Virus record (IMG/VR): IMGVR_UViG_3300042397_001305
Coordinates: 694 to 64,693 of that record
DNA length: 64,000 nt
Reading direction: 5' to 3' (one strand)
Source of the DNA: a virus
Lineage: Duplodnaviria; Caudoviricetes
Shown here: positions 4,842 to 35,112 of the stretch, in pieces
Numbering within the stretch: the first letter of the stretch is position 1
How the letters are laid out: each line of letters begins with the position of its first letter
Notes under the pieces: model-generated
What the model was told of the DNA's origin: nothing
The model's database searches: none
Seen by the model: the letters and a program-made list of their open reading frames with translations, nothing else
Position numbers and translations under genes: made by a program

Positions 4842-4851
4842 TTTTTTTAAT

Positions 4852-5514: not shown

Positions 5515-5517
5515 ATA

Positions 5518-8023: not shown

Positions 8024-8025
8024 AA

Positions 8026-9273: not shown

Positions 9274-9329
9274 ATATCTCTTATTTTTAAACAAAAGATA
9301 ATAATACGAGATAAATAATAAATGGTAAA

Positions 9330-14500: not shown

Positions 14501-15640
14501 TAAATAAGGGTGTTTCGAATCTCCATTAATTGCGAAAAATTGTTTGTTTGTTAAATTAGCCTGTTCTAAAGCATCTGAAATAACATAAGTTCTTTCCTCA
14601 AATCCTTGTCCTCCGTGAATACCAATTGGGTAATCAATACTAATAACAATTTCTGCTGATGGAACTTCAAACCATCTTGCCAATGTTCCTCCATTTGCGG
14701 TTCCAATCTCAACAATAATTTTAGGTTGATGATTATTAACCGTAAGTTGTAGATTTTCAATTTCTAAAGGAATTTGCATCGAACCATTTCTTCTTCTTTT
14801 GGTTTCAGGTTTTAAATAAAGTCGGTCAAAAGTGTTTTTAAAAAATATCTCGTGTCTATAAAATTCAATAGGAAATTCAGATGAAATACTATGATAATGA
14901 ATTGTTGGACACTCAGGTCTTTCAAAAATATCAACACCGGTAAACATTCTATGTTTAATTTTATTTAAGTCTGAAAATTCCGGTAAATTATATTCTGTAT
15001 GTGAGAAACTTAAAATCTTCTTTCTAATATCTTCCGGAGACATAAAAAATGATAAGTGATAACCACCATCTTCAATATGAGTACAATTAAAGGTGTAGTC
15101 TCTTAAATCATTAAACCTTAACATATTTTTTAAAGTAAAATTATTAATAGCGACGGTTGCAAAACAATCAATTAATACTTCAGTTAACGGAGAATAATAG
15201 AATGTTTTCATTTTAAATGAAACCGCATCCATATTAAAATCTTTTGTCATACGACGAGCCTCATCAAACAATTCTTTTTTAGGGAATTCATCCACACACG
15301 AAAGAAGAATCATACAATCATCATCCGAAAATTCTAAAGTTTTTGTTCTTAAACATTCAACTTGTTGTCTTTCTAAATGCCATTTATCTTCTTTTAGTTT
15401 TTCCAAATCATTTTCAGTTGGTTCATAAACAATATAATGAATTCTATCACTATATTCTTCAAATAAATGAGAAATAGTCGGATAAACCAATTCTTTAGGT
15501 ATTCCTGTTAATGTTGTCGTGCTTTCCGAAATAACGAAGTAATCTACACAATCACCATAATAATCCAATCTCATTTTTAACATTTCCAATTCATCGTTGA
15601 ATAGGAAACAATCTACAATTTTATAATTTTTATCTGTCAT
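11504..15640 (-). CDS. multidomain glycan-synthesis protein: GT17 + SAM methyltransferase (Methyltransf_24-like) + GT2 + GT4 + GT2
   Basis: DCFLFNDELEMLKMRL/GYHLSFF (GT17); VEIGTANGGT, FIDGDHTYEGV and GFHDI (MTase); VVPIYN/LNSDA (GT2); DRKGI, PSRADTFGMTVLEAMGCGLPVI (GT4); TSYKRP/FTDQD (GT2). Confidence 0.85.
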   Translation of the reverse strand: MTDKNYKIVDCFLFNDELEMLKMRLDYYGDCVDYFVISESTTTLTGIPKELVYPTISHLFEEYSDRIHYIVYEPTENDLEKLKEDKWHLERQQVECLRTKTLEFSDDDCMILLSCVDEFPKKELFDEARRMTKDFNMDAVSFKMKTFYYSPLTEVLIDCFATVAINNFTLKNMLRFNDLRDYTFNCTHIEDGGYHLSFFMSPEDIRKKILSFSHTEYNLPEFSDLNKIKHRMFTGVDIFERPECPTIHYHSISSEFPIEFYRHEIFFKNTFDRLYLKPETKRRRNGSMQIPLEIENLQLTVNNHQPKIIVEIGTANGGTLARWFEVPSAEIVISIDYPIGIHGGQGFEERTYVISDALEQANLTNKQFFAINGDSKHPYLVERLREILDGKKVDFLFIDGDHTYEGVKGDFDLYEQFLNENSIVGFHDIIDSQFHAENNCFVSTLWSELKQKYESVEFMYPQLLDGNILEYFYNAANHKGGFAGIGYIEYSKKKDLSNNISLVVPIYNNVDDTIVNVQTTLSTSKHIDEVILYSNGTIESENDKLRLFAKTNPIIKLIIVEKAIGFIKAVNESFKLCKNEYMLCLNSDASLYDNWETQLLDLCQNENNGLVGPVLCDGFILGCCFIVKKSILNKIGLLNEGYGLGYYDDNDISNRVSSNGYELGYSQIKSGYDWEDQFVNFPINHSQGKSFNLVDSNLITGQQHTNKLKLEKFINTEKVVVLKNLSYEDVKSLLNEDDVFIIVNKSGDNFEKIRYDDDIVRLSHIFECTKEMVIEDIVTSTTKGKKVEFRTINKPKFTWLAKYDDYASMGILSQKILENLQISDASCKEIIGVTETKNELIHELIKKPINHDLGIMFAYPDMVNELKEFKTKVIYTGVDTTGGYSRFVEKSKEIDYILTPSNLSKERMIKMGVDKPIFVFPHGIEKNEFTYKPRVMGDKFKFLYVGECSDRKGIFHLLKAFTELYKDNPNVELHLKSNTAMLFYGGNEVQKYVDENSNIFWDKSDVGHERTLELYNECHVYVYPSRADTFGMTVLEAMGCGLPVISTSEPGSTELVRGKYINIPTNEVPVVGHPWMTGNWGEPNLQMLSLQMDTIYKNYEDFATPEKLKEISEYVNENYCWEKITNNFENNILPNLVKEVKIATLLTSYKRPHHIKNIINCLKDIRENGYTNDIYIVDNTNDNSKGEVTKVINENIDDKFTFYSSSFNLGQRGALLQMLDDVNIDDYDFIQFTDQDNLLLEPLSTYCNILNENPDIFFASGYMSKEHEELGWRNTRFGNLCEKRSLRAGHMFMRVSDLKSLLPIHLDSQHGQPHNSSWYAGLDWEVSFWNPKSPARMTNNNFVLCVPGGVLHKGVDSTFYDWDVDANEYTLEELQKMR

Positions 15641-15646: not shown

Positions 15647-16930
15647 TTATAATACGTTAATAATATCAGTTAATTGGATTAAGTCCATACATTCTTTTCT
15701 TTCAGGTTGTTGTAAATCCAACCACCATTTTCTAGATGAAAAATCTTTACCACAATCTTTTTCAATATATCTAACACCGGGATGTTTTGCGTGGTCATTA
15801 TAAAATGGTGTTAAACAAATCCCAACCTCAGGTTTGATTGATGATGCAAAATGGTGGAAAAATGTGTCAACACTAATCCATAATGAACATTCATCTACCA
15901 TTGACGCTAATTTAGGTAATGGTTGGTCCAAGAACTTTAAATCAACCATAGGAATCTGATTATCTTTAAATGACCCAACTTGGACAACATAATAACCTCT
16001 TTGTTGTAGTTCATTAACTAATTTTAACCATCTAATTTCTTTCCAATTTTTATTTGAATCAACATCCTGTATTTTTGCGGCACTACTACAAATTATTGCG
16101 ATAGGTTTATCTCCGTTTTGAAGGTCATCACTTTCCCTTTTTCCATTATAAATTAAAACATCTTTATCTGTTCGTTTATAACCATACAACTCAAAAAACG
16201 CATCGACAATAGTTTTAGAATTATTTGCGGAACCTTGTTCATATACAAATCTTCTATACCCACCAAATAACTCATCATTCCAATGGATATAACCTTTAAA
16301 CTCTAAGTGTTCAAATACAACCGGATATTTACAACAAATATGAACATTTTTATGAATTTTCTCTAACAATGGTAACGACATAACGTGGTCCCCCATTCCA
16401 CCATCAAGATAAAATATCTTGTCGTAAAAAATAGGGTTATCGACTTTTTTATTATATCTTATACAATCTTCACTATCATCATTAAAATCTAATCTATATT
16501 TTTTGTATTGGGTTAATAAATCAATAATAAACCATTTAATGGATTGATATTTTGAATCCATATTCAACCCTAAAAATTGTTGTTTAGAACCATATAATGA
16601 TTCGGTTATTTTAGGGTCAAAAGTGTTTAACCTAATTGATGAACAATCCTCATCTAAGATTAATATGAATTCGGTATTACTTTTAGTTATTAATTCAACA
16701 ATAGAATCTGTTTTTGATTTTTCAGTTGGGTTAGCATTATATCTAGAAAAACCAATAATACTTTGTTTAATTTCGTTGTCATTCCAAGGAATATATCCTT
16801 TAGAATTTAAGTTAAGTGAAAAATACCCAACACCTCTAAAGTCTTCAATTACCTTTAATAGTTTTTTTAATTTATCTTGATTCTCAGTATGAATTATTAC
16901 TGTTATTTTATTTCTGCTTTGTTGTCTCAT
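15647..16930 (-). CDS. GT9 (ADP-heptose heptosyltransferase-like) glycosyltransferase with N-terminal extension
   Basis: GGMGDHVMSLPLL, NKNWKEIRWLKLVNEL and ISVDTFFHHFAS motifs. Confidence 0.75.
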   Translation of the reverse strand: MRQQSRNKITVIIHTENQDKLKKLLKVIEDFRGVGYFSLNLNSKGYIPWNDNEIKQSIIGFSRYNANPTEKSKTDSIVELITKSNTEFILILDEDCSSIRLNTFDPKITESLYGSKQQFLGLNMDSKYQSIKWFIIDLLTQYKKYRLDFNDDSEDCIRYNKKVDNPIFYDKIFYLDGGMGDHVMSLPLLEKIHKNVHICCKYPVVFEHLEFKGYIHWNDELFGGYRRFVYEQGSANNSKTIVDAFFELYGYKRTDKDVLIYNGKRESDDLQNGDKPIAIICSSAAKIQDVDSNKNWKEIRWLKLVNELQQRGYYVVQVGSFKDNQIPMVDLKFLDQPLPKLASMVDECSLWISVDTFFHHFASSIKPEVGICLTPFYNDHAKHPGVRYIEKDCGKDFSSRKWWLDLQQPERKECMDLIQLTDIINVL

Positions 16931-16935
16931 AAAAC

Positions 16936-17667
16936 TTATGGAGTTGCAACCCCCCTTTTTGATACCACAATTGAAGACATTTCATTTGCGTAGATTATTG
17001 ATGTCTTAACATCTCTTGTTTGATAATATTTTAATATGAATGATGAAGTAAATGTATCACCGGCACCACTTACATCTATAGTTTCTTGGGGATTTGGACT
17101 TGGATAAACAACACCTTGATACATAGTTCCTCTCGAACCCAATGTTATCAAAACATTATCTAAATCCGATAATTCTTTATTGTTTATTGATTCTTGTTCG
17201 TTTAACTTAACAAAGTCAAAACAATTAATAATGTCTTGTGTTAATTTTCGTTTTGAATCTAATATGGTAATTCCTCCCATCGTACAAAGTTCTTTTAAAA
17301 TACTATCATCTAAAAACCCTTTGTTATAATCACTAACAATTATGATATTAAAAAATTGATTCATATTAATATCACTAATCTCTTGAACTAAATCTTCACC
17401 TTCGTCCACTCGAATAAACATATGGTTACTTTTCTTATCCACATATCTTGTCTTTGTAATTGGAGCGAATTGATACCAATGTGTAATATCATTATAATCA
17501 ACACCCAACGCTCTTAAATTCTCCACAACATTTCCCGACATTCCTTTATTCTCGGTGGTTTCCACCGGGATTAGGACAGGAACGGGAGCTTCCGGTGATA
17601 ATCTATCAATCTTACAATAAACAAACCTGTCAATACAGGATTCACCTACGACTAAAACTTTAAACAT
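16936..17667 (-). CDS. hldA: PfkB-family sugar kinase, HldA/RfaE domain I-like (heptose-7-phosphate kinase)
   Basis: VLVVGESCIDRF, RLSPEAPVPV, ITKTRY, VSDYNKG and DVSGAGDTF motifs. Confidence 0.8.
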   Translation of the reverse strand: MFKVLVVGESCIDRFVYCKIDRLSPEAPVPVLIPVETTENKGMSGNVVENLRALGVDYNDITHWYQFAPITKTRYVDKKSNHMFIRVDEGEDLVQEISDINMNQFFNIIIVSDYNKGFLDDSILKELCTMGGITILDSKRKLTQDIINCFDFVKLNEQESINNKELSDLDNVLITLGSRGTMYQGVVYPSPNPQETIDVSGAGDTFTSSFILKYYQTRDVKTSIIYANEMSSIVVSKRGVATP

Positions 17668-18043
17668 TCTTTAATGTGTTTGTTGTTGAATACCCCTCGA
17701 TTCTGTCAAAGAATATTACCTCTTTAACCAATTCAGAACCAATGACATTCTTATCTTTATAATCCGAACCAACAATCATAACATCAGTTTCCCAATCTTT
17801 AATTTGTCGTCTTAATTCATTATCCGTTGAAAACCCAACTACGTCATAAACATAACGGATGGATTCCATTAATTTTATTCTATCTTTCCAAGTATTAACC
17901 GGACGACCATCTCCTTTGAATTGTTTAACCCTTGAATCTGTGTCAATGCCTACTCTAACTTTACCAAACACACTCGCAAATTTTAATAACTCAATATGTC
18001 CAATATGAAGAACATCGAATGTTCCGTTTACCCAAACTCTCAT
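17660..18043 (-). CDS. hldC: HldC/RfaE domain II-like heptose-1-phosphate nucleotidyltransferase
   Basis: NGTFDVLHIGH, FKGDGRPVN, GSDY and GYSTT motifs; ATG at 18043 overlaps the upstream stop. Confidence 0.8.
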   Translation of the reverse strand: MRVWVNGTFDVLHIGHIELLKFASVFGKVRVGIDTDSRVKQFKGDGRPVNTWKDRIKLMESIRYVYDVVGFSTDNELRRQIKDWETDVMIVGSDYKDKNVIGSELVKEVIFFDRIEGYSTTNTLKNV

Positions 18044-18426
18044 TTTTGAGAATCTCCTTTCCATACTCTATAAGAATCACTATCTGCGTGGGTTGTGGAT
18101 ACCTCGAAGATTACACCATCAGATAACGCCTCTAATTGGTGGGGCTGACCAGGTCTTTGTCTAACCGTATCACCAACTTTTAATATTTTCTCAATAACCT
18201 CAGCAGTTTCAGTATCAATCCATCTATAGATAAATTCACCTTTATCAACATACCAAGTTTCATCTTTAATCATATGATAGTGCATTGAAAATTTTGCACC
18301 TTTGTCAAAGCACAATAATTTACCACAATAAAGTTCATTATTCTCAATAATGATTTCTTTACCCCATCCTTTTGGGACACAACATCCCTCACATTCAATT
18401 ACATTAATTACATTAGGTTTTTCCAT
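18040..18426 (-). CDS. cupin (sugar isomerase-like)
   Basis: VPKGWGKE, SMHYHMIKDETW, PGQPH and FEVSTTH..DSYR motifs. Confidence 0.8.
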   Translation of the reverse strand: MEKPNVINVIECEGCCVPKGWGKEIIIENNELYCGKLLCFDKGAKFSMHYHMIKDETWYVDKGEFIYRWIDTETAEVIEKILKVGDTVRQRPGQPHQLEALSDGVIFEVSTTHADSDSYRVWKGDSQK

Positions 18427-18752
18427 TCAAAGTCCTCCCACTCGTTCATTCTGATTGCTTTATCGTCAACATAAAAGTCGGCGCTTGGTTTTCCAAAATA
18501 TACCTCATCATAAGGAACATCATATTTCTTTAACCATTCAAATAATATGGGGGATTGAACTGAGATTACTTTCCCAACATTCCCTGAGTAAGTTTGCATA
18601 TTTCTCGCAGTATGGAGAATTATGTAATGTCCGTCTTTTCTTAATTTTTTTAAGGTTTCGACAGCACCTTTTTTAGGTAGAACGTCTTGGTATTGTTCAC
18701 CTTCTTTTTTTAATTCAGCAATTGTTCCATCAACATCAAAACAAAATCTCAT
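18408..18752 (-). CDS. small HAD phosphatase (EcbF/BcbF capsule-biosynthesis type)
   Basis: FCFDVDGTI, ILHTAR and GKPSADFYVDDKA motifs; start moved to ATG 18752. Confidence 0.8.
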   Translation of the reverse strand: MRFCFDVDGTIAELKKEGEQYQDVLPKKGAVETLKKLRKDGHYIILHTARNMQTYSGNVGKVISVQSPILFEWLKKYDVPYDEVYFGKPSADFYVDDKAIRMNEWEDFEWKNLM

Positions 18753-18800
18753 ATTATTTAACTTTGTCTTAATAATAAACAATTACGAAAAAACATAAAT

Positions 18801-18825
18801 AAAAAACCCCACTAAAAAGTGGGGT
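18801..18825 (-). terminator. rho-independent terminator after the giant fibre gene
   Basis: ACCCCACT-TTTT-AGTGGGGT followed by a T run on the minus strand. Confidence 0.85.
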
Positions 18826-18842
18826 ATGACATAATTATTATT

Positions 18843-21800
18843 CTAACAAGTCCTATCTATATGAAATGTGTAAGAATATTTTATTGTAGATGCAATTTGA
18901 GAAACCGTATTTAAACCAGCAGTAAAAAAATCAGTACAAGCAGATATAAATTCATTTTCTCCCAATGTATATGAAACCCCAAAACAAACATATCCTGCAC
19001 CACCTGGACCATCAATATATTCGTCTTGACCAATACCTAACACATCTATATTATCAAATTCACCATCCGTAACGTTATTACATCTATACAATGAGAATCC
19101 GGAACCAAAATCGTCACCTGAGCTAAAATCTGAAATCCAAGCAACACCACATAAGGTAATAACATCACCTGGGACTAAATCCATAGGTACTGGAATTAAA
19201 CAATTGCTATTTTCAATAGGAATTGGGTCATTTCTTTCTTTACCAAATTGGGTTAGTACGTTAAGGTCACAAGCATCCCAACCACAGTCTTTATTACCTA
19301 TATACCATTCTGTTGAGGACTGATTTGCCCCAACTAAGAATGCTCCTGAGTGCGAAGCAATTAAGTTATACTCGTGAGTACATCCTCCACCACCTCCACC
19401 GGCAAGTCCTGAGATACCCTGTGGTCCTTGACTTCCGACAAGACCTGAAATACCACTTCTACCTGAAATTCCTGAAGTTCCGCTAGCTCCCGCAACACCA
19501 TCTATACCGTTTATCCCTGAAATACCTGAAGTTCCGTTTGAACCTGCAATACCTGAAATACCTGACGTTCCATTTGAACCCGCAGAACCTGCAATACCTG
19601 AAATACCTGACGTTCCATTTGAACCCGCAGAACCTGCAATACCTGAAATACCTGACGTTCCATTTGAACCTGCAGAACCTGCGATACCTGAAATACCTGA
19701 AGTTCCATTCGAACCTGCTGAACCTGCGATACCTGAAATACCTGAAGTTCCATTCGAACCTGCAATACCACTAATACCACTTCTACCTGAAATACCTGAA
19801 ATACCTGAAGTTCCATTCGAACCTGCTGAACCTGCTATACCTGAAATACCTGAAGTTCCATTCGAACCTGCTGAACCTGCTATACCTGAAATACCTGAAG
19901 TTCCATTCGAACCCGCAGAACCTGCGATACCTGAAATACCTGAAGTTCCATTCGAACCTGCTGAACCTGCTATACCTGAAATACCTGAAGTTCCATTCGA
20001 ACCTGCAATACCACTAATACCACTTCTACCTGATAAACCTGAAATACCTGAAGTACCGTTTGAACCTGCTATACCTGAAATACCTGAAGTTCCATTCGAA
20101 CCCGCAGAACCTGCGATACCTGAAATACCTGAAGTTCCATTCGAACCCGCAGAACCTGCGATACCTGAAATACCTGAAGTTCCATTCGAACCCGCAGAAC
20201 CCGCTATACCTGAAATACCTGAAATACCTGTTGGTCCAACAGCTCCATCTACGCCATTAACTCCGGATATCCCACTTCTACCTGAAGTTCCTGATAAACC
20301 ACTTGCCCCTGAAGTTCCTGATAAACCACTAATACCTGATTGACCTGAAGTTCCTGATAAACCACTGATTCCTGATGTACCAACCAATCCTGATAATCCT
20401 GAAGTACCACTAGCACCTGAAGTACCTGATAAACCACTAATACCTGAAGTTCCGCTAGCACCTGATAAACCACTTATACCTGAGATTCCACTTCTACCTG
20501 ATAAACCACTGATTCCTGATGTACCAACCAATCCTGATAATCCTGAAGTTCCGCTAGCACCTGAAATACCGCTAATACCAGAAGTTCCACTTAAACCACT
20601 AATACCCGAAGTTCCTGATAAACCTGAAGTTCCACTTGCACCTGAAATACCACTAATACCTGATTGACCACTAGTTCCGGATAATCCACTTAATCCTGAA
20701 ATACCTGAAGTTCCAATTAATCCGCTGATACCACTTCTACCTGAAGTTCCTGATAAACCTGAAAGACCTGACTGACCTGATAAACCACTAATACCGCTTT
20801 GACCTGAAGTTCCACTTGTTCCTGATAATCCACTGATACCACTTTGACCCGAAGTTCCTGATAATCCTGAGATACCTGACGTTCCAATTAATCCGCTAAT
20901 ACCACTTGAACCTGACGTTCCACTTAATCCTGAAATACCCGATTGTCCGCTAGCTCCTGATAACCCTGAAGTTCCCGAAAGTCCTGATGTACCACTTAAA
21001 CCACTGATACCTGATTGTCCGCTAGTACCTGATAAACCTGAGATACCTGATGTTCCACTTGCTCCTGATAAACCTGAGATACCTGATGTTCCACTTGCTC
21101 CTGATAATCCACTAATACCTGATTGACCTGAAGTTCCAGATAATCCTGAAATTCCGCTTTGTCCTGAGGTACCACTTGTACCTGAAAGACCCGAAGTTCC
21201 TGATAAACCACTGATACCTGATTGACCGCTAGTCCCTGATAAACCTGAAGTTCCGCTCACCCCTGAAATACCACTAATACCTGATGTTCCAATTAATCCT
21301 GAAATACCACTTCTACCTGATGTTCCTGATAAACCGCTGATTCCACTTTGTCCTGATGTACCTGATAAACCTGATAAACCTGAAGTTCCACTTGTACCTG
21401 AAAGACCCGAAGTTCCTGATAATCCTGAAATTCCACTTTGACCGCTAGTACCACTTAAACCACTAACACCACTTTGACCTGATGTTCCTGATAAACCTGA
21501 AGTTCCACTAGTTCCTGAAAGACCACTTAAACCTGACTGACCTGAAGTACCTGATAATCCACTGATTCCACTTGAACCTGATGTTCCTGACAATCCTGAC
21601 AATCCTGAAATACCCGATAAACCTGAAGTTCCTGATTGACCCGAAAGTCCTGATGTTCCACTTATACCTGAAACACCTGATTGGCCGCTAGTTCCTGAAA
21701 GACCTGAAGTCCCTGAGGTTCCACTTAACCCTGAAATACCACTCGTACCCGAAGTTCCCGATAATCCTGAGATTCCTGAAGTACCACTTAATCCTGAAAT

Positions 21801-24800
21801 ACCTGATGTACCTGAAGTTCCTGATAAACCACTAATACCTGATTGACCTGATAATCCTGATGTTCCGCTAGTACCACTTAAACCACTAATACCACTTGAA
21901 CCTGAAGTCCCTGATAATCCTGAGATACCTGATTGACCGCTAGTACCTGATAAACCTGAAGTACCACTTGTTCCTGACAATCCTGAAATTCCACTATTTC
22001 CCGATAAACCTGAGATACCACTTCGACCACTAGTTCCTGATAATCCTGAAATACCTGATTGACCGCTAGTCCCCGATAATCCACTGATACCACTTGAACC
22101 TGATTGACCTGAAGTTCCTGATAAACCTGAAGTTCCACTTATTCCACTGATACCTGACTGACCCGAAAGTCCTGATGTTCCACTTATACCTGAGATACCT
22201 GATTGGCCGCTAGTTCCTGATAATCCACTGATTCCACTTGAACCTGATAAACCTGATGTACCTGATGTCCCACTAGTACCACTTAATCCGCTGATTCCAC
22301 TTTGACCTGAAGTCCCTGATAAACCGCTGATACCACTTTGACCACTAGTCCCTGAAAGACCTGATAACCCGCTAATACCGCTTTGTCCTGATGTTCCACT
22401 TAATCCTGAGATTCCCGATTGTCCGCTAGTTCCTGATAATCCTGATAAACCTGAAGTTCCACTTGCTCCTGAAATACCGCTAATACCTGATGTTCCAATT
22501 AATCCACTAATACCACTTTGACCGCTTGCTCCCGATAAACCACTAATACCACTTTGACCCGAAGTTCCACTTAATCCTGAAATACCTGACTGACCTGAAG
22601 TTCCTGATAAACCTGAAATCCCGCTAATACCTGATTGACCACTAGTCCCTGAAAGACCTGATAACCCGCTAATACCACTTTGTCCACTAGTCCCCGATAA
22701 TCCTGATGTACCACTATTTCCACTTAGACCCGATGTTCCTGATAAACCTGAAGTTCCACTTAAACCGCTGATACCTGATTGACCTGAAGTCCCTGAGGTT
22801 CCACTTAACCCTGAAGTCCCGCTTAATCCTGAAGTCCCGCTTAATCCTGAAATACCTGATGTACCTGAAGTTCCTGATAAACCACTGATTCCACTTGAAC
22901 CTGATAAACCTGATGTCCCACTAGTACCACTCGTTCCTGAAATACCACTAATACCTGATTGACCTGATAAACCTGAAATACCGCTTTGACCTGAAGTTCC
23001 TGATAAACCTGAGGTACCTGAAATACCGCTAATACCTGATTGACCTGAAGTACCACTAGTTCCTGATAATCCACTTATTCCGCTAGTACCACTTGTACCT
23101 GACAATCCACTTAATCCTGAAGTACCGGATGCTCCTGATAATCCACTGATTCCACTAGTCCCTGATAAACCGCTAATACCTGATTGTCCTGACGTTCCTG
23201 ATAAACCACTAATACCTGATTGACCACTAATTCCGCTCGTACCTGAAGTTCCTGATAAACCACTAGTACCACTCAATCCTGAAATACCTGATTGACCGCT
23301 AGTTCCTGATAAACCTGAAATTCCACTTGTGCCTGAAAGACCACTTATTCCACTTGAACCTGATAATCCTGATGTACCTGATGTCCCACTAGTACCACTT
23401 AATCCGCTAATACCGCTTTGACCCGAAGTACCTGATAAACCTGAAGTTCCACTTGAACCTGATAAACCACTAATACCTGATTGACCACTAGTTCCTGATA
23501 AACCTGATGTTCCACTTAAACCGCTAATTCCACTTTGACCGCTAGTTCCTGATAATCCTGAAATACCTGATGTTCCGGATAAACCACTAATACCGCTTGT
23601 TCCTGATGTTCCGCTTAATCCTGAGATACCTGAAGTACCACTAGTACCTGATAATCCACTTATTCCGCTGGTACCACTTGTACCTGAAAGACCACTATTT
23701 CCACTTAGACCGCTTATTCCACTTGAACCTGATAATCCTGATGTACCTGAAATACCACTTAATCCTGAAATACCTGATTGACCGCTATTTCCACTTAAAC
23801 CTGAAATACCTGACTGACCTGAGGTTCCGCTATCTCCCGATAATCCACTAATACCGGAAGTTCCGATTAAACCTGAGATTCCCGAAGTACCCGATGTTCC
23901 ACTTAATCCTGAAATACCTGATTGACCGCTAGTTCCGGATAATCCGCTTATTCCACTTTGACCTGAATCACCTGATAATCCTGAGATACCTGACTGACCA
24001 CTAGTACCGGATGTTCCGGATAAACCTGATGTTCCACTAGCCCCTGACAATCCTGAAATACCTGATTGACCTGAAGTACCACTGTCACCACTTAACCCTG
24101 AAAGTCCTGAGATACCGGATGTTCCGCTATTCCCTGATAATCCACTAACACCACTTTGACCTGACGTTCCTGATAAACCTGAAATACCACTAGTACCGGA
24201 TAACCCACTTGAACCTGATAAACCTGACGTTCCACTATCTCCACTTAATCCACTAATACCGGATGTTCCTAAAGTACCACCTATACCACTAATACCTGAT
24301 TGACCTGAAGTTCCCGATAAACCACTTAATCCGCTAATACCTGAATCTCCTGATAATCCACTTAAACCTGAAATACCACTAATACCTGAAGTCCCTGACA
24401 ATCCTGAAATTCCACTGATACCTGAAAGACCACTATTACCAATTGCTCCTACCGTTGTAACAACAAATGAGTAATATGAATTACCTTCAGTATAATAAAC
24501 AACTGAATGTGACGTTGAATCATTATTACTAAGATATAACCTAGCAATCATTCTATTTGTTGGGTCAATCGTTGTTGTTGGTAAAACAAGGTCAACATTA
24601 ACTTCGACAGGTACTACGGAACTAACCCAACCAATTAATGAAATATTTGTTGATATTGTTGGCCCAATAGGTGTTCCTGCCGAATTCGCTAATTGGATTT
24701 CAACGTAAGCATCAATATCATCATTTGATGCCGGTTTTAAATAATGTAAATGAAATCTTTGTACACCTGCAGGAATTACTGCAAAACCTAATTGTGGTGT

Positions 24801-27800
24801 TATATAATCAGCGACCAAAACATTTTGTTGGCCACTTGTTAAATTTGTTGTTAATGTTTGTGTAGTTGCCGTTGAAGGGATTCTTGATAAAACTTTATAT
24901 CCTGAAACGTCAGAATTTTGACTTTCATTAAAATAGTATGTTTGACCTGCAGTAATACCGTCTTGACCACTAATACCTGAAAGACCGCTTATCCCCGATA
25001 ATCCGCTATCACCACTTAATCCTGAAATACCTGAATCCCCCGAAAGTCCTGAAAGACCACTATCACCACTTAATCCTGAAATACCTGAGTCTCCCGATAA
25101 TCCGCTATCTCCTGATAAACCTGATGTCCCGCTATCTCCCGATAATCCACTAATACCTGAATCACCACTCAATCCGCTAATACCACTATCACCTGAAAGA
25201 CCTGAAATACCTGAATCTCCACTAAGACCGCTATCACCTGATAAACCTGATTCTCCTGACAACCCACTATCACCGGAAAGTCCTGAGTCCCCACTTAAAC
25301 CTGAAATACCCGATGTTCCTTCAATACCGGATAAACCACTATCTCCCGATAATCCTGATATACCGCTGTCTCCTGAAATACCACTAATACCCGAATCACC
25401 ACTTAAACCTGAAATACCACTATCTCCGGAAAGACCTGAATCACCACTTAATCCTGAAAGTCCTGAAAGACCTGAGTCCCCTGATAAACCACTAATACCA
25501 CTCTCACCTGAAAGTCCTGAGTCTCCTGACAATCCACTTAATCCACTATCACCTGATAATCCTGAGTCACCGCTAATACCTGATGTCCCTTCAATACCTG
25601 AAATACCACTATCACCACTTAAACCACTAATACCCGAATCTCCTGACAATCCTGAAAGACCACTATCTCCCGATAATCCGCTATCACCTGAAAGTCCCGA
25701 TGTTCCTTCAAGACCTGAAAGTCCTGATATACCTGAATCTCCTGACAATCCTGATGTACCTTCAATACCGGAAATACCGATGTCTCCTGATAATCCACTG
25801 ATACCACTATCACCACTTAATCCGCTAATACCTGAATCTCCTGATAACCCACTTAAACCGCTATCACCTGAAATTCCACTTAAACCGCTGTCACCTGATA
25901 ATCCGCTAATTCCGGAATCACCTGACAATCCTGAAAGACCACTGTCTCCTGATAAACCACTGATACCAGATGTTCCACTTAGTCCTGAGATACCTGAATC
26001 TCCACTTAATCCGCTAATACCCGAATCACCACTAAGACCGCTATCACCTGAAAGTCCTGAGTCCCCACTTAAACCTGAAATACCCGATGTTCCTTCAATA
26101 CCGGATAAACCACTATCTCCGGAAAGACCACTGATACCCGATGTTCCGGATAAACCTGAAACCCCACTATTTCCACTTATCCCACTAATACCGGAAGTTC
26201 CGTTTAATCCTGAAATTCCTGAAATACCACTTAAGGCTGCGGTTGTTAAAAGTATTGCCGAGAAATAACTAGCACTACCATTAGCACTACCATTTAAGTC
26301 AACACTACTTGAGTGACCATTATATGCGGTGAAATCTACATAATCAGTAGACCCATTAAAGTAAATTAGTTTACTATTACCCTGACTAACACCTGTAGGT
26401 GTTGTTATTTGATTTTGGTAAATAAATACTTGAGTACCATTTTTACGAATTTGTATGTTATATTGGTTGGTAGTAGACGTACTACCATTCCATAATACTT
26501 CTAATGTTACACTATAATAACCTGCAACCGTTGGGGTAAATCTATATGTTGATGTATTCCACCAGTTCTGTGGGTCAAAGTCATCAATAAACTGAATTAC
26601 TGTGTCCGATGTTGAAGGTATTGATTGGGCTGTTGATAAGTAACCTTGAGTAACATAATTACTTTGAGTTAATCCTGTCCCGGCAAGACCTTGTAAACCA
26701 CTATTTCCTGATAAACCACTTAAACCACTAATACCAGAATCACCGCTTAAACCTGAAAGTCCTGAATCTCCTGATAAACCTGAAATACCTGATGTCCCTT
26801 CAATACCACTATCACCTGATAACCCGCTAATACCACTTAAACCTGAAAGACCCGATGTTCCTTCAATACCACTATCTCCGGATAAACCTGAGATACCACT
26901 TGAACCATATATACCACTAATACCTGACGCTCCGTCTACACCTGCAATACCATCCGCACCTACTAAACCTGAAATACCACTATCACCACTTAACCCGCTA
27001 TCACCTGAAAGACCTGAATCTCCACTTAAACCTGATAATCCTGAAATACCTGAATCTCCTGATAATCCACTATCACCTGATAAACCACTAATACCTGAAT
27101 CTCCTGATAATCCACTATCACCTGATAATCCTGAAATACCTGAATCTCCCGAAAGACCTGAGTCTCCACTTAATCCACTAATACCTGAATCACCCGACAA
27201 TCCTGAAAGACCACTATCACCCGAAAGACCTGAGTCTCCCGATAATCCGCTGTCACCACTTAGTCCACTAATACCCGAATCACCACTTAATCCTGAAATA
27301 CCACTGTCTCCTGATAAACCACTAATACCACTATCTCCTGAAAGACCTGAGTCTCCACTTAAACCTGAAACACCACTATCACCTGATAAACCTGAGTCAC
27401 CACTTAATCCACTAATACCTGATATACCTTCAAGTCCTGATAACCCTGAATCTCCCGATAAACCTGAAATACCTGAAATACCTGATTCGCCCGAAAGACC
27501 TGAGTCTCCACTTAAACCACTATCACCTGAAATACCTGAGTCACCTGAAAGTCCCGAAGTCCCTTCAAGACCTGAAATACCACTATCTCCCAATAATCCT
27601 GAGATACCTGAATCACCACTTAAACCACTATCACCACTTAATCCACTAATACCTGAATCACCACTTAAACCTGAAATACCACTATCACCTGAAAGACCTG
27701 AGTCTCCCGATAAACCACTTAAACCGCTATCACCTGAAAGACCTGAGGTTCCTTCAATACCTGAAAGACCTGAATCCCCACTTAAACCGGAAATACCGCT

Positions 27801-30800
27801 ATCACCTGATAATCCACTAATACCCGAATCTCCTGATAAACCACTTAAACCTGAAATACCTGAGTCTCCTGACAATCCACTAATACCACTTAAACCGGAA
27901 TCACCTGATAAACCTGAGTCACCACTTAATCCGCTAATACCAGAATCACCTAAAAGTCCGCTAATACCTGATAACCCTGATTCTCCACTTAATCCGCTAT
28001 CCCCTGATAATCCTGAGATACCTGAGTCACCTGAGATACCTGATTCACCCGAAAGTCCACTAATACCTGAATCTCCGCTTAATCCACTATCCCCGGATAA
28101 ACCTGATGTCCCTTCAAGACCTGAAAGTCCCGAAGTTCCTTCAAGACCTGATATACCTGAATCACCTGATAATCCTGAGATACCTGAGTCACCTGATAAT
28201 CCTGAGTCACCTGATAATCCTGAGATACCACTATCTCCTGAAAGACCTGATATACCGCTATCACCCGATAATCCTGAAAGACCTGAATCCCCTGATAACC
28301 CACTAATACCCGATAGACCTGAATCACCCGATAAACCTGAATCACCTGATAGACCTGAGTCACCGGAAAGTCCACTAATACCTGAATCACCACTTAAACC
28401 ACTATCACCTGATAAACCTGAAATTCCACTTTGTCCTGAAGTTCCTGATAAACCACTTGAACCATATAAACCACTAATACCGGAAGCACCATCTACACCC
28501 GCAATACCATCTGCACCTACTAAACCTGATATACCTGAATCACCACTTAAACCTGAGTCTCCTGAAAGACCGCTAATACCTGAGTCACCTGAAAGTCCGA
28601 TATCTCCACTTAAACCTGACATACCTTCAAGTCCTGAGATACCACTATCACCTGATAATCCTGAATCTCCGATTAATCCGCTAATACCTGAAGTCCCTTC
28701 AAGACCTGAAAGACCTGAATCTCCACTTAATCCTGAGATACCACTATCACCTGAAAGACCTGAGATACCACTATCGCCACTAATACCACTATCACCTGAA
28801 AGTCCACTAATTCCTGATACACCATTGACTCCGGCAACGCCATTCGCACCAATTAACCCACTAATACCTGAATCTCCAATAATACCACTATAACCTGATA
28901 TACCTGAAGTACCTATGTCACCTGAAAGACCCGATAATCCCGAATCTCCGATTAATCCACTCACACCTGAAATACCTTCAAGACCTGAATCACCTGATAA
29001 TCCACTATTACCTGAAAGACCTGAAAGACCTGATTCCCCCGATAAACCTGATTCACCAGAAATACCTGATATTCCTTCAAGACCTGAAATTCCTTCAAGA
29101 CCCGATTCACCACTAATACCACTTAAACCACTAATACCCTCATAACCACTTAAACCTGATTCACCTGAATCACCACTTAAACCGGAAATACCGCTATCAC
29201 CTGAGATACCTGAGATACCTGAGATACCTGATATCCCCGAACCACCAATACCTAAAGTTGTTTGAGCAAATGAATAATGTTGTTCACTTTCAGATATAAA
29301 TGTTATTCTTCTAGCAACAACTAATAAGTTACTTGCTTGAACTTTAACAACTAATCTATCACTAACATTTAATGTATAACCGGTTTGGAAAATATCGCTA
29401 ATCTCCATCTGAATCAAATTACCATATCCAGTTACAAAAACAGGGTCTGATGAAAATATTAAAGTTTCAGTTGCACCTGTTGTTCTAATATAAACATCAC
29501 AAAATACTTCAAATGACGAAGATTGTAATTCTTTCGACATATGTAAGTAAAAAGACCAAAATCCTGAAGGAATTGCCGTCACCCCCGGTACACCCGGTGG
29601 AGTCATATATGTTTGGATTGTCGCAATAGAATTACCTGCAACTAATGTTGTTGCACTAGTTTGAATTAAAGTTGCTGGAGTTGTTGAAAATTCTTTGTAT
29701 GGAGACTGTGTCTCTGCCGTGTTAAAAAAGTAAATCGCCCCACCTGAACTACCATTGTTTCCTTGAATACCACTTTGTCCTGATAACCCTGAATCACCTT
29801 GTAATCCTGAGATACCAACTAAACCTGAATCACCACTTAAACCTGATGGTCCAGTACCACTTAAACCTGATAAACCTGAAGTTCCCGATATACCACTTCT
29901 TCCTGAAATACCGCTTAAACCGGAAATACCGTTAAGTCCCGAAACTCCAACACCATTTAACCCTGAAATACCTGAAACTCCAATACCGTTAAGCCCTGAA
30001 ATACCTGAAACTCCAATACCGTTAAGTCCCGAAATACCTGAGACACCAAAACCATTTAACCCTGAAATACCACGTAACCCGCTAAGACCTGAAGGACCAC
30101 GTAATCCACTAATACCTGAAATACCTCGTAACCCGCTAAGACCTGAAATACCACCACCGGATGTTATACCGGTAACAGATACTGTATTACCGTCGTTTCT
30201 ATATAAATCTAATGTTGAAGTTGCTGAGAAATAAGTACCTCCCGTAACAAATATATCTGTAGACGATGTTGCTAAAATTCTCCATCGAGCATTTGGTCGG
30301 GTTACCCCGTTTACGCCCTCAATAGTTGAACCTGTCCAAGCATTAATTAACGCTTGACCTGCAGGTGAGTTATTTTTAACTGTTGTCCCAAAATCTGAGA
30401 TTACTACAGTGTTTCCACCAATACCTGATGAAGCAAGAGCATTAGACCATAAAGTATTATAATTATCAATAGAATATTGGTAAATTTGGTTAGTTTGATA
30501 AACATAAACCAACATACCTAAACGTCGTCTTCCCGATGAAATATTATCAGAATTTAATGTTAATGTATTAAATGAAAATGGTGAACCATTACCAATAAAG
30601 AATTGGATTGGAATAGTGTTACCACTATTCTCAACATCACCGACGATATTAGGGGGGATTGTATAAACTAAATCATTTAGTGTATAAACCTCCATAAAAC
30701 CCCCTGTATTTAGAACACTAAAAGTTGTACCAAAGGTACTTGTACGTAATAACGATTGACTTCCAATAGAAATTAATGGGGATAATGGATTTTTATAATT

Positions 30801-30812
30801 TAAGTTAGACAT
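18843..30812 (-). CDS. 3989-aa Gly-X-Ser collagen-like fibre protein with a C1q domain and two paralogous globular inserts
   Basis: Long (G-X-S)n tracts; N-terminal [10 protein letters not shown] domain; C1q-like [34 protein letters not shown] at about 26232-26680; paralogous inserts at about 29236-29760 and 24437-24960; Cys-rich C-terminal domain. Confidence 0.8.
19516..20225 (-). repeat. near-perfect 45-bp tandem repeat ([15 protein letters not shown] units) inside the fibre gene
   Basis: cctgaaatacctgaagttccattcgaacctgctgaacctgctata and close variants recur with a 45-nt period, with some shorter units. Confidence 0.85.
20226..30150 (-). repeat. degenerate 9-bp (Gly-X-Ser) coding repeat
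   Basis: cctgaaata/ccacttaat/cctgataaa-type 9-mers throughout, interrupted by three globular domains. Confidence 0.9.
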
Positions 30813-30831
30813 ATTTTTTTTAAATTAATGG

Positions 30832-31710: not shown

Positions 31711-31729
31711 ATTTTTTTATTTATTTTTT

Positions 31730-32146
31730 TTAATAGCAACCACAAGGATTTGTACACGTAGCCGATGGTGTTGGTGTATTTGTATTTGTTGGCGTATTTG
31801 TTGATGTTATTGTTGGTGTAGGTGTCGGTACTTTACAAGGGTCAAATGTTGGTGTTGGTGTCATTGTTGGTGTAACTGTTGGTGTTACCGTTCTTGTTAT
31901 TGTTGGAGTAACAGTTGGTGTTGGTGTAGGTTCAGGTACATTTATTATTATAGGACAATCTGACCCCTCAACTAAAATTGTGTAAGTTCCGTATACGTCA
32001 CGAGGAGGTGATAATAATGCAGGGTTAAATTCATAAGGTAGAATTTGATTACCTAAATTAATTACCACATTAACTTTTGACGGTTTAAATATGATATTTG
32101 CCGTCTCACCAATATGACTTACACTTTGTATTATTATTGAACTCAT
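31730..32146 (-). CDS. small Pro/Thr-rich (mucin-like) putative virion protein
   Basis: C-terminal half is almost entirely PT/PTxT and ends in CTNPCGCY. Confidence 0.65.
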
Positions 32147-35083: not shown

Positions 35084-35112
35084 GATAAATAGTCAGAAAC
35101 GAAGTATTTATA
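35084..35112. promoter_or_regulatory. back-to-back divergent TATTTAT late promoters
   Basis: TATTTATC on the minus strand (35084-35091) before GTG 35071, and TATTTATA on the plus strand (35105-35112) before ATG 35127. Confidence 0.65.

Follow-up and report, generated by a model that had tools for sequence, protein, structure and literature searches.

A stretch of phage DNA raises the question of what is made by a gene whose product has glycine at every third residue over most of its length, serine beside it and hardly any proline. The window (the whole analysed stretch of 64,000 nucleotides, IMG/VR record IMGVR_UViG_3300042397_001305) comes from an uncultured phage and contains this gene as a single ATG-to-stop ORF of 3989 aa. 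An earlier note on this DNA had proposed an extremely long collagen-like virion filament. Here, the repeats, the globular domains, the relatives and the neighbouring genes of the ORF were analysed (Table 1).

Table 1. Features of the fibre gene and its surroundings (positions in the window)
Feature	Position	Strand	Basis
Fibre gene, 3989 aa plus stop	18843..30812	-	single ORF
N-terminal conserved domain (aa 1-220), presumed virion anchor	30153..30812	-	236 clusters
Three short Gly-X-Y runs (12, 11, 12 triplets) with brief breaks between, aa 221-359	29736..30152	-	run count
Insert 1, globular node (aa 360-522)	29247..29735	-	paralogue of insert 2
Collagen-like block 1, 286 uninterrupted triplets, mainly (G-L-S)(G-D-S)(G-I-S), acidic	26673..29246	-	run count, Pfam Collagen
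C1q-fold node (gC1q/TNF-like jelly-roll), aa 1381-1528	26229..26672	-	AlphaFold2 model, Foldseek
Collagen-like block 2, 142 uninterrupted triplets, unit as in block 1	24951..26228	-	run count
Insert 2, globular node (aa 1955-2121)	24450..24950	-	paralogue of insert 1
Collagen-like block 3, 563 uninterrupted triplets, mainly (G-T-S)(G-Q-S)(G-I-S)(G-L-S), neutral	19383..24449	-	run count, Pfam Collagen
C-terminal tip (aa 3811-3989), after Gly6 run, Cys-rich, presumed receptor-binding end	18846..19382	-	no relative in IMG/VR
Three co-directional upstream genes: 973 aa (papain-like C-terminal domain), 138 aa, 292 aa	30832..35071	-	syntenic with fibre
Terminator-like hairpin, 8 pairs (5 G-C), then T-run	18806..18825	-	consensus match only
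Nucleotide-heptose-type genes (HAD phosphatase, cupin, heptose-1-P adenylyltransferase-like, heptose-7-P kinase-like) and GT9-like gene (427 aa)	15647..18782	-	NCBIfam below cut-offs
1378-aa fusion protein, GT17 + methyltransferase + GT2 + GT4	11504..15640	-	profile search
PF11397 'Glycosyltransferase (GlcNAc)' protein, 422 aa, candidate polypeptide O-GlcNAc transferase	8026..9294	-	Pfam

The Gly-X-Ser repeats of the fibre protein

Gly-X-Y runs were counted where glycine stood at each third residue over at least five triplets. Six runs of 12, 11, 12, 286, 142 and 563 triplets were found, comprising 1026 triplets or 3078 residues (77% of the protein). When the residues of the protein were shuffled 500 times, the longest run had a mean of 6.0 triplets and never went beyond 10, as against 563 in the real sequence. 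Serine occupies the Y position in 904 of the 1026 triplets (88%) and is encoded there by both codon families (567 TCN, 337 AGY), which argues that selection acts on serine itself. The whole protein contains 38 proline residues (1.0%), and only 3 of the 2052 X and Y positions are proline. Lysine is absent from these positions and the 163 charged residues among them are nearly all acidic. The X position is filled by a bulky set (Leu, Ile, Thr, Asp and Gln), Leu and Ile together accounting for 568 of the 1026 triplets, and the repeats hold 1120 Ser plus Thr. The periodicity is directly visible in the translated ORF, and the observation of an almost proline-free Gly-X-Ser repeat protein made in the earlier note is confirmed. 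Pfam Collagen recognised samples of block 1 (378 aa, E = 2e-59) and block 3 (400 aa, E = 9e-62). The collagen triple helix rises by 0.286 nm per residue, which would give the repeats a length of about 880 nm, close to the micrometre predicted earlier for a triple helix.

The G+C content of the gene (0.38-0.44) is higher than that of its flanks (0.26-0.35), as expected from GGN and Ser codons. The repeat DNA has diverged: glycine and serine are each spelled by several codons, the longest exact DNA repeat in the gene measures 87 nt, no 101-mer occurs twice in the repeat DNA and only 7.5% of its 31-mer positions are non-unique. The sole near-identical array lies at 19540-20223 (243-nt period, 92% matches), and block 3 closes with an array of a short peptide unit.

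The phage and its relatives

Judged by its genes, the contig is a fragment of a T4-like phage. It encodes a T4-type major head protein (phrog_138, E = 1e-66), so the gene is indeed viral, as had been assumed. The virus is probably a jumbo-type tailed phage of lake water and not necessarily a giant virus; in 24 lake-water sequencing runs, 51% or more of the sampled words were present. Each of the nine IMG/VR relatives carries Gly-X-Ser runs, which range from 52 to at least 586 triplets. The same three genes precede the fibre in each of them, with tblastn matches at all nine loci; profile matches among these genes were Pfam Peptidase_C1 and phrog_16701.

Globular domains between and beside the repeats

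The N-terminal domain, which closes with one beta-repeat unit, has relatives in 236 clusters at E <= 1e-3 and was found at nine IMG/VR loci. Only 3 of the 150 matches listed start beyond residue 8 of the protein. Its model (pLDDT 79) had no PDB match (Foldseek best E = 0.19; VIA best Z = 4.0), and the domain was absent from the 50,697 GenBank phage records searched. Behind the common N-terminal domain, the fibrous and tip modules differ greatly across the 236-cluster family; like modular phage fibres, some of its proteins terminate in modules of beta-helix-like, propeller-like or C1q-like type. These searches show both family membership and modularity directly: the fibre protein stands at the extreme of a family of modular fibres that share this domain.

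The two inserts are paralogous, as claimed before: BLASTP of aa 355-525 against aa 1950-2125 gave E = 6e-12 with 24% identity over 174 columns. The domain of insert 1 also occurs in the relatives L001, L002, L004, L005, L006 and P0102 and had no Pfam, PHROG or PDB match. The ESM Atlas clusters nearest to insert 2 are unnamed viral proteins (scores 0.96-0.97).

The node at aa 1381-1528 lies between Gly-X-Y runs and scored below the Pfam C1q cut-off (16.2 against 23.7 bits, E = 0.013). Its AlphaFold2 model (pLDDT 88.5) matched C1QL2/3, Caprin-2, the NC1 domains of collagens X and VIII, adiponectin and C1q with Foldseek E values of 6e-9 to 7e-6, target TM of 0.7-0.87 and 11-21% sequence identity to the solved domains. 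Foldseek also paired it with the central-spike knob of phage phi812 (matches down to E = 6e-9), and 97 homologues of the node were found. According to this model comparison, which addresses the fold directly, the domain described earlier as C1q-like has the gC1q fold. The multimer modelling proposed for it was carried out: three copies gave a trimer with an ipSAE of 0.94 as compared to 0.00 for the best of three controls, three runs agreed in at least 85% of contacts and partner pLDDT was at least 87. In the calibration of the tool, which was based on two copies and other alignments, the pass mark was reached by 20 of 30 proteins whose solved structures pair two copies of one chain and by 1 of 23 solved as single chains. 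Since solved C1q trimers exist, the result may reflect likeness to known structures. The C-terminal tip had no relative in IMG/VR, nor among proteins of 315-2000 aa, and its Atlas scores, all below 0.9, serve as leads only.

Neighbouring genes, possible glycosylation and stability

The late-promoter-like motif TATAAATA is located at 35105-35112 on the minus strand, 34 nt before the first start codon of the four-gene unit; across the window the motif is not enriched (15 seen, 15.25 expected). A terminator-like hairpin, 18 nt past the fibre stop codon, stands between the fibre gene and the heptose/GT9-like genes. The earlier note had suggested serine glycosylation by enzymes of the adjacent cluster. 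The sugar-nucleotide and glycosyltransferase island is there, directly after the fibre gene and on the same strand. The adjoining heptose/GT9-like genes, behind the hairpin, fit the suggestion less well: they are not conserved, GT9-like homologues being found in none of the five relatives' records with Gly-X-Ser fibres. All NCBIfam scores of the heptose-type genes lay under the equivalog cut-offs, and for the 427-aa GT9-like protein no match to a solved chain reached E <= 0.01.

A better candidate, on grounds of conservation, is the PF11397 glycosyltransferase (Pfam E = 9.8e-71, 239.5 bits against a cut-off of 21), encoded 9.5 kb downstream of the fibre gene. It is kept in three of the five relatives' records at 73-94% identity, one being a 100%-complete genome of 322 kb, and matched in none of 14 control genomes. 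Homologues with 46-49% identity occur in four cultured jumbo phages of Xanthomonas and Stenotrophomonas. We take PF11397 to correspond to CAZy family GT60. A passage in PMC8724618 describes GT60 enzymes as polypeptide alpha-GlcNAc transferases, which start mucin-type O-glycans on Ser/Thr-rich protist domains. The substrate of the phage enzyme could also be another protein or a glycan. The glycosyltransferase genes themselves are a direct finding, and O-glycosylation of the fibre serines is plausible.

Serine in Y is among the poorer triple-helix formers on host-guest peptide scales. The repeats have almost no proline and no lysine, hence no Lys-Asp/Glu salt bridges, so that stability would need another source. 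None of the stabilisers described in the relevant part of PMC11923368 is present in them.

Alternative explanations

The gene and its architecture might be real and the repeat number mis-estimated by short-read assembly, the true protein being substantially shorter or longer. No Logan contig ran across the whole fibre gene in four lake-metagenome runs, and more than 150 joints between repeat positions at 20.5-25.7 kb appeared in these runs at k=31; the length of block 3 is thus without independent confirmation, and the 92% self-identical array points in the same direction. However, the scarcity of non-unique 31-mers and the lack of a repeated 101-mer mean that 150-nt reads can thread the repeats. 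In addition, all parts of the gene recurred exactly in the four runs (cover in all 30 bins, no differences in all 32 pieces listed), and the independent orthologue L001, with 65-69% DNA identity, has one unbroken stretch of 339 triplets and another of at least 195. A seriously wrong length is rather unlikely.

The abundance of Ser and Thr, the lineage-conserved PF11397 gene, whose product resembles transferases that initiate mucin-type glycans, and the absence of known triple-helix stabilisers would suit a mucin-like tether, an extended, heavily O-glycosylated and largely unstructured bottle-brush joined only at trimeric nodes. Yet a disordered spacer needs no glycine at each third residue, whereas here 563 triplets stayed unbroken while codons drifted, the periodicity is kept in all nine relatives and the repeats border a parallel trimer node; we grant this explanation a small chance. 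The product could also act outside the virion, released or displayed on the infected cell as a decoy, matrix component or aggregation factor, as the gene does not lie beside recognisable tail or baseplate genes within the window. This is very unlikely, considering that the large family sharing its N-terminal domain carries modules typical of phage fibres, that a late-promoter-like motif precedes the four-gene unit and that C1q-fold knobs are known in phage fibres and spikes. Polyglycine-II bundles, raised earlier as an antifreeze-like alternative, consist of short antiparallel segments joined by turns, with small side chains facing the core. A Gly-rich three-residue repeat lacking proline in a lake-water phage would invite such a fold, or another non-collagen fold, with an antifreeze or ice-binding role if the lake is cold, but the fit is poor: runs of 286, 142 and 563 triplets contain no turn-like interruptions, X is mostly bulky and the nodes are modelled as parallel trimers. 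We consider it extremely improbable.

Comparison with known collagen-like proteins

In phages and prophages, collagen-like tail fibres and minor tail proteins, among them the E. coli O157 prophage collagens (PMC3368898), likewise have Gly-X-Y spacers between globular trimerisation or receptor-binding domains. The present protein differs from these in its scale (1026 triplets in 3989 aa), in having Ser in Y and not Thr, Gln or Pro, and in an N-terminal anchor domain without characterised relative. Repeat samples matched 43 and 36 PHROG families, mostly annotated as tail fibre, although this likeness is for the most part compositional; of 25 fibres with a C1q knob and 20 or more triplets, only 2 have Ser as the dominant Y residue. 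BclA-type glycoproteins of the Bacillus exosporium combine a Pro-poor Gly-X-(hydroxy amino acid) repeat, a C1q/TNF-like trimerising domain and O-glycosylation by enzymes encoded nearby. They offer, as an analogy, the nearest functional parallel, but are bacterial, far shorter and built with Thr, and their C1q-like domain is C-terminal, whereas the phage protein has Ser, an internal node and glycosylation as a candidate trait only. The gC1q-domain collagens (C1q, C1QL, adiponectin, collagens VIII and X) share the fold and the adjoining Gly-X-Y repeats; here the trimer is modelled, the domain sits mid-chain with repeats on both sides and its Pfam C1q score is below cut-off.

As reported in part of PMC11923368, (Gly-Pro-Thr)10 peptides fold only when galactosylated and vent-worm collagen carries glycosylated threonine. 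In a similar way a glycosylated hydroxy amino acid in Y could replace hydroxyproline in the phage repeats, which however have Ser instead of Thr and X residues other than Pro. Giant viruses with glycosylated fibrils likewise keep their own sugar-nucleotide and glycosyltransferase genes beside surface-fibre genes (review PMC9614988), but these are eukaryotic viruses with other fibre proteins and the present one is a tailed phage. The autotransporter heptosyltransferases TibC/AAH, which hyper-heptosylate AIDA-I and TibA according to an excerpt of PMC4358343, resemble the locus in that ADP-heptose-type synthesis genes and a GT9-like enzyme lie beside a Ser-rich repeat protein; the GT9-like protein here differs in lacking a solved-chain match and in being missing from relatives.

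A probable long collagen-like phage fibre

Taken together, we consider it fairly likely that three copies of the encoded protein make up a homotrimeric, collagen-like fibre belonging to an uncultured T4-like phage from fresh water, probably of jumbo type. In this best reading it is probably a virion fibre of about 0.9 µm that does without the usual stabilisers. Its sequence is laid out like a virion fibre: a conserved domain at the N-terminus is followed by fibrous spacers interspersed with globular nodes and by a variable tip. The earlier interpretation is thus supported in part, namely for the viral gene, the fibre architecture, the trimer node and the glycosyltransferase island; the adjoining heptose/GT9-like genes are the weaker enzyme candidates.

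The inferred elements, namely a triple helix, a place in the virion, glycosylation and a role as tether, would combine as follows. The N-terminal domain would dock the fibre on the virion, and three parallel chains would be set in register by globular nodes, namely both inserts, the tip at the C-terminus and the domain with the C1q fold. Between these nodes, the three long Gly-X-Ser segments would wind as triple helices of collagen type, about 245, 122 and 483 nm long, stabilised by the trimeric nodes and plausibly by O-glycosylation of Y-position Ser by phage enzymes, and the unique Cys-rich C-terminal domain would form the distal host-binding end. The fibre is a new form among the already known phage collagen-like fibres, and at this length it may serve as a long-reach tether that widens the capture radius of the phage in dilute lake water.

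Gly-X-Ser repeats of the fibre protein

The fibre gene is an open reading frame of 3989 codons running from ATG to stop. The predicted protein is composed of 28.1% Gly, 26.3% Ser, 9.6% Leu, 8.4% Ile, 7.0% Thr and 1.0% Pro. Gly occupies every third residue in six runs of 12, 11, 12, 286, 142 and 563 triplets, in total 1026 triplets or 77% of the chain; the three long runs are termed blocks 1, 2 and 3. In 500 residue shuffles of the protein, the longest Gly-X-Y run did not exceed 10 triplets, compared with the 563 observed. The Y position is Ser in 904 of the 1026 triplets and the X position is mainly Leu (313), Ile (255), Thr (174), Asp (117) or Gln (52). Among the 2052 X and Y positions, Pro occurs three times and Lys is absent, while 163 are charged, nearly all of them Asp or Glu. 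Units of the (GLS)(GDS)(GIS) type make up the proximal blocks 1 and 2, and (GTS)(GQS)(GIS)(GLS) units the distal block 3. The earlier note had described a Gly-X-Ser fibre with Ser in nearly every Y position and almost no Pro, and the recount of runs, Y-position Ser and Pro agreed with this sequence description in every particular.

Two samples of the repeats (378 and 400 aa of the 3078 repeat residues) matched the Pfam collagen family PF01391 with 197.6 and 205.1 bits (cut-off 27.2). The usual stabilisers of the triple helix, namely imino acids in X or Y and Lys-Asp/Glu salt bridges, are not a feature of these repeats. Judged by its sequence, the protein fits the definition of a collagen-like protein yet departs from the compositional habits of known stable collagens.

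Length of the repeat blocks

Although the fibre repeats at the level of amino acids, its DNA is not repetitive in a way that concerns assembly. Exact direct repeats within the gene reach at most 87 nt, and 7.5% of 31-mer positions but none of the 101-mers are non-unique. Gly is encoded in the repeats by GGT, GGA and GGG and the Y-position Ser by TCN (567) as well as AGY (337) codons. These mixed codons and the scarcity of exact DNA repeats mark the repeats as old and diverged, and as maintained by selection acting on the protein; the sole young array has a period of 243 nt with 92% matches.

At least 24 sequencing runs, all labelled lake water, hold 51-94% of the sampled 31-mers of the gene; they come from 24 coded studies, which are possibly one campaign, and the best holder is possibly the source sample. 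Logan contigs from four of the lake runs covered 30 of 30 bins of the region 18000-31800 in every run, and the 32 pieces listed among these contigs (337-1114 bases aligned) showed no difference from the window. A bin at 19844-20304, at the near-identical 243-nt array, had almost no depth in one run (X1) and had depth in the other three, a gap to which we attach no meaning. The orthologue in L001, the closest IMG/VR locus, has 65-69% DNA identity over the repeats and uninterrupted runs of 339 and, up to the contig end, at least 195 triplets, which independently supports very long Gly-X-Y blocks. The possibility that the length is an assembly artefact, raised from the outset, was thus answered in part by the contigs of the four runs: the content of the gene was confirmed, whereas the exact length of block 3 was not, because no gene-spanning piece was found among these contigs and many k=31 joints link repeat positions inside 20.5-25.7 kb.

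The N-terminal domain and the fibre family

The domain formed by residues 1-220 was found in 236 clusters (50% identity level, E <= 1e-3), at the N-terminus in every complete sequence found. Among the best 150 of these clusters, a Gly-X-Y run of at least 5 triplets was present in 11 and one of at least 20 triplets in 5; the others carried beta-repeat shafts ('TGGTYS.GTATFTNNTGGTF', 'SGLTANTISATTYQNLP') and widely differing distal modules. With a constant anchor joined to differing shafts and tips, collagen is one of several exchangeable shafts, which is the design of modular phage fibres. The family of 236 clusters has the conserved virion-proximal domain and the exchangeable shaft and tip modules by which tail fibres are recognised, and the fibre protein would work in a manner like that of the collagen-like tail fibres of many phages.

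Homology does not appear to suffice for filing the protein as a tail fibre. The model of the N-terminal domain (pLDDT 79) found no solved fold with Foldseek against the PDB (best E = 0.19) or with VIA-align against 48,161 chains (best Z = 4.0, with the noise level of the tool at 7-8), the rows to tailspike N-termini reaching only Z 2.7-3.2. Its one match in BFVD was an uncharacterised protein of an uncultured phage (E = 1e-19), it had no match among 50,697 GenBank phage records, and none of the genes neighbouring the fibre gene had a tail or baseplate annotation.

The nine IMG/VR loci that were recovered for the domain through close patterns all have Gly-X-Ser runs, the shortest of 52 and the longest of at least 586 triplets; where complete, their proteins have 1005-1934 aa. 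In a library of 5.8 billion clusters, just four proteins of at least 2193 aa carried the N-terminal domain, the longest with 2510 aa, and collagen-like repeats were found in none of the four. The 3989-aa fibre is the longest found with this domain. Of 25 fibres with a C1q knob and at least 20 triplets, most had Thr or Gln in Y, and Ser dominated in 2. Metagenomes thus contain many Pro-poor phage collagens, of which those with Ser are the less frequent type; the Ser type characterises this phage lineage.

In all nine relatives the fibre gene is preceded by the same three genes in the same order as in the window; they encode a 973-aa protein with a papain-like C-terminal domain, a 138-aa protein and a 292-aa protein. 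The C-terminal domain of the 973-aa protein is a cathepsin-like Peptidase_C1, the protein is 53-92% identical in the nine, and it shares a phrog_15511 segment with the next gene. Searches of PDB sequences with the 973-aa and 292-aa proteins returned papain-like C-terminal matches only, or nothing. In L001, about 5.8 kb (3579-9424) separate the homologue of the 138-aa gene from that of the 292-aa gene, although the two genes are adjacent in the window; this segment probably represents one or more genes inserted into the fibre module. The late-promoter-like TATAAATA occurs 15 times in the window against 15.25 expected, so that its copy 5' of the 973-aa gene is suggestive by position only, and a terminator-like hairpin lies 3' of the fibre stop codon. 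These consensus matches would fit one late transcription unit comprising the upstream genes and the fibre gene.

Features of the window with their coordinates
Feature	Position	Strand	Length	Evidence
PF11397 glycosyltransferase	8026..9294	-	422 aa	Pfam PF11397, E = 9.8e-71, 239.5 bits (cut-off 21)
Fusion protein: GT17, class-I methyltransferase (Methyltransf_24/CmcI-like), GT2 and GT4	11504-15640	-	1378 aa	
GT9-like protein	15647..16930	-	427 aa	Pfam GT9, 29.7 bits (cut-off 22)
HAD phosphatase, cupin, heptose-1-phosphate adenylyltransferase-like and heptose-7-phosphate kinase-like genes	16936-18782	-		all below NCBIfam equivalog cut-offs
Fibre gene	18843..30812	-	3989 aa	
Young array in the fibre gene	19540-20223			
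Phosphoglucomutase-like/nucleotidyltransferase fusion	3' of the fibre gene	-		
HtrL/YibB-type protein	3' of the fibre gene	-		
Gene next to the 973-aa gene	31730-32146			phrog_15511 segment
973-aa protein	32150-35071	-	973 aa	Peptidase_C1
406-aa protein	37864-39084	+	406 aa	phrog_7162 'glycosyltransferase', E = 5e-44
Second cytidylyltransferase-like, PolB-type 3'-5' exonuclease-like and dUTPase/dCTP-deaminase-like genes	39087-40850	+		
T4-type major head protein	60318..62195	-	625 aa	phrog_138, E = 1e-66

The globular nodes and the tip

The node between blocks 1 and 2 scored 16.2 bits (E = 0.013) against Pfam PF00386, which is below the gathering score of 23.7. A search of proteins of 283-2000 aa found 97 homologues of the node (E <= 1e-3), in some of which it is terminal and in others internal; a precomputed PF00386 match exists for 6 of the 97. 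The model built from an alignment of 25 homologues (pLDDT 88.5) is an all-beta sandwich of 11 strands. Its list of best structural matches contains the central-spike knob of Staphylococcus phage phi812 and a long series of gC1q domains (C1QL1-3, Caprin-2, collagen X and VIII NC1, adiponectin, cerebellins and C1q), with Foldseek E-values from 6e-9 to 7e-6 for C1QL2/3, Caprin-2, collagen X/VIII NC1, adiponectin and C1q. The modelled jelly-roll beta-sandwich can be superposed on solved gC1q domains. The C1q-like domain named in the earlier note has, by this model, a true C1q fold, although it falls below the Pfam cut-off.

Modelling of the trimer at this domain, which the earlier note had asked for, predicted a trimer: three copies gave an ipSAE of 0.94 in each of three runs, compared with 0.00 for the best of three controls, with a contact agreement of at least 85% and a partner pLDDT of at least 87. 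The ipSAE mark was calibrated on a task unlike this trimer job, being reached by 20 of 30 proteins solved as same-chain pairs and by 1 of 23 solved as single chains, and the modelled trimer may reflect memory of solved C1q trimers. The model supports a homotrimeric node that would set the register of the helix. Weak relatives of the node occur in Pelagibacter and Methylophilales phages. L001 is devoid of it, which makes the node together with block 2 an insertion/deletion difference between close relatives.

Inserts 1 and 2 are paralogues of each other. They belong to a virus-only domain that falls into no known family, and their neighbours in the ESM Atlas are unnamed viral clusters. Comparison of the insert domain with the C1q-like alignment by hhalign revealed no profile likeness (probability 0.1%), and PDB sequences gave no match (best E = 1.4). 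The C-terminal 179 residues follow a run of six Gly and are rich in Cys. No relatives of this tip were found in IMG/VR or among proteins of 315-2000 aa, and its Atlas matches, all below 0.9, are leads only (spike protein G, CBM-like and DUF642 clusters). The tip is probably a fast-evolving receptor-binding end.

Putative glycosylation genes near the fibre gene

Several genes on the strand of the fibre gene encode putative sugar-modifying enzymes (see table). The heptose-nucleotide-like set has no SIS-type isomerase, and a 128-aa cupin (phrog_7851) stands in the expected place of that enzyme; this protein is possibly a sugar-phosphate isomerase of the cupin type; alternatively, the pathway may lead to a different sugar. 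The GT9-like protein matched no solved chain, TibC-type chains included, at E <= 0.01. The four-domain fusion resembles an 'assembly line' unusual in phage; its GT17 domain is of the family to which the bisecting-GlcNAc transferases of glycoproteins belong. In the five records of relatives with Gly-X-Ser fibres the GT9-like gene was found in none, and tblastn of the heptose genes against the nine fibre loci gave no match. The heptose genes and the GT9-like gene look like a strain-specific addition.

Of these five records, the three largest (322, 215 and 97 kb) contain the PF11397 gene, and the remaining two are fragments of 44 and 77 kb. In the three relatives the gene lies on the strand of the fibre gene, 10-25 kb downstream, with 73-94% identity, which exceeds that of the fibre's own anchor domain; among cultured phages, four jumbo phages of Xanthomonas and Stenotrophomonas have homologues at 46-49% identity. 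PF11397 presumably corresponds to CAZy family GT60. [quoted passage not shown] A protein-type O-glycosyltransferase thus appears to belong to the core of the lineage with Ser-rich collagen fibres, which makes glycosylation of Ser a reasonable hypothesis. The PF11397 enzyme is a putative GlcNAc transferase acting on Ser/Thr of the fibre, given its co-occurrence with Gly-X-Ser fibres in three of the five records; we give O-glycosylation of the Y-position Ser somewhat less than an even chance.

The 406-aa protein matched no Pfam family or solved chain; its gene, syntenic in seven of the nine loci of relatives (71-83% identity), adds a second candidate modifier conserved in the neighbourhood of the fibre. 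The genes that follow it, on the strand opposite to the fibre, are kept in relatives as well.

A likeness in gene order to Xanthomonas phage XacN1 was considered and dropped, since the 3313-aa reading frame near its PF11397 homologue is not collagen-like. Its 971-aa neighbour did not match the 973-aa protein of the window (best E = 0.62), nor did its GT9 match the GT9-like protein (E = 0.24). In the XacN1 locus (L017 8371-18312, record 203370-213311), this 3313-aa 'hypothetical protein' lies between two baseplate-wedge genes and the GT9 gene; its C-terminus contains Pro/Thr-rich linkers and repeated 'DDR(I/V)(L/T)EDGEGRITEDG' units, and the protein is unrelated to the fibre.

The virus and its relatives

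The virus is represented by a single contig of 64,693 bases, of which the window leaves out just 693. Genes are tightly packed and the G+C content is 0.26-0.35, but 0.38-0.44 in the fibre gene. The nearest relatives of the T4-type major head protein are found in Microcystis phage Mel-JY01, Flavobacterium 'immuto' phages and uncultured phages of 484-595 kb (39-43% identity). The phrog_138 match spans residues 368-602 only, and tblastn matches to other phages fall in two pieces covering 57-65%; the head protein may have a large N-terminal extension or an insertion. Contigs of relatives with the N-terminal domain of the fibre reach 322 kb, one being rated 100% complete. The virus is a tailed phage of the T4 superfamily from lake water, probably of jumbo size.

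Proposed structure and stability of the fibre

A parallel three-chain collagen helix would best account for the repeats, because Gly periodicity is strict over hundreds of triplets, against codon drift, beside a parallel trimer node. With the rise of 0.286 nm per residue of the collagen helix, blocks 1, 2 and 3 would extend over about 245, 122 and 483 nm and all repeats over about 880 nm, as computed from the sequence; the length of nearly a micrometre proposed for a triple helix agrees with this calculation, provided that the repeats are helical. The long tail fibre of T4 measures about 145 nm, and the predicted fibre would be several times longer. Its nodes would start helix formation and restore the register, a role that non-collagenous domains have in animal collagens, and the long reach would aid adsorption to scarce hosts.

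A polyglycine-II bundle, as in antifreeze proteins, had been offered as an alternative. Such bundles consist of short Gly-X-X segments with small side chains joined by turns; the 563 triplets of block 3 run without a break and the X position holds Leu or Ile in 568 of the 1026 triplets, which argues against a bundle. A rival to the triple helix is that the Gly-X-Ser stretches are mucin-like, and it is the strict Gly periodicity beside the trimer node that favours the parallel helix. In its working the fibre would come closest to BclA-type exosporium glycoproteins, in which a Gly-X-Thr repeat is joined to a C1q-like trimer and sugar genes lie nearby.

The stability of collagen is usually ascribed to imino acids, hydroxylation or interchain Lys-Asp/Glu salt bridges. 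According to a recent survey, Lys-Glu/Asp salt bridges are proposed as a collagen folding code shared by all domains of life and viruses, and the Thr-rich triplets of bacteria and viruses are rationalised by glycosylation of Thr, (Gly-Pro-Thr)10 folding only if galactosylated (PMC11923368). The collagens described there have Lys/Pro stabilisers or Thr, whereas this fibre has almost no Pro, no Lys and Ser in the place of Thr. Prokaryotic collagen-like chains of up to 2000 triplets are described in the same survey, so extreme length alone is not new among them (PMC11923368). Among the literature matches listed, no Gly-X-Ser collagen was found in titles or the beginnings of abstracts, the listed matches to Gly-X-Ser concerning lipase/esterase-type motifs, and similar proteins may be in print. 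The novelty lies in a phage combining about 1000 Gly-X-Ser triplets, nearly devoid of Pro and lacking Lys, with an internal gC1q node, an anchor without known fold and a conserved GT60-like enzyme.

The fullest reading of these observations, which we consider rather unlikely as a whole, is a freshwater jumbo-phage clade with its own mucin-type O-glycosylation: a GT60-like enzyme would start the glycan, in this phage the heptose pathway and further transferases would extend it, and the glycosylated Y-position Ser would stabilise a Pro-free, Lys-free triple helix of about 0.9 µm. If true, collagen would here be stabilised by new chemistry, the proposed universal salt-bridge code would have an exception, and the fibre would exceed in length all those predicted for phages to date. 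Few cases of phage virion glycosylation are known, and a protein-type glycosyltransferase conserved within a phage lineage would enlarge their number. The clearest value of the fibre is as a test case for how the collagen helix is held together: its Gly-X-Ser repeats may fold on some other basis, for example glycosyl-serine, hydration or registration driven by the nodes; if not, strict Gly periodicity can be selected for a different structure. A collagen free of Pro and hydroxylation that can be encoded in bacteria would be of practical interest as a material, and a fibre several times the length of the particle would, if true, bear on how phages reach rare hosts in dilute water.
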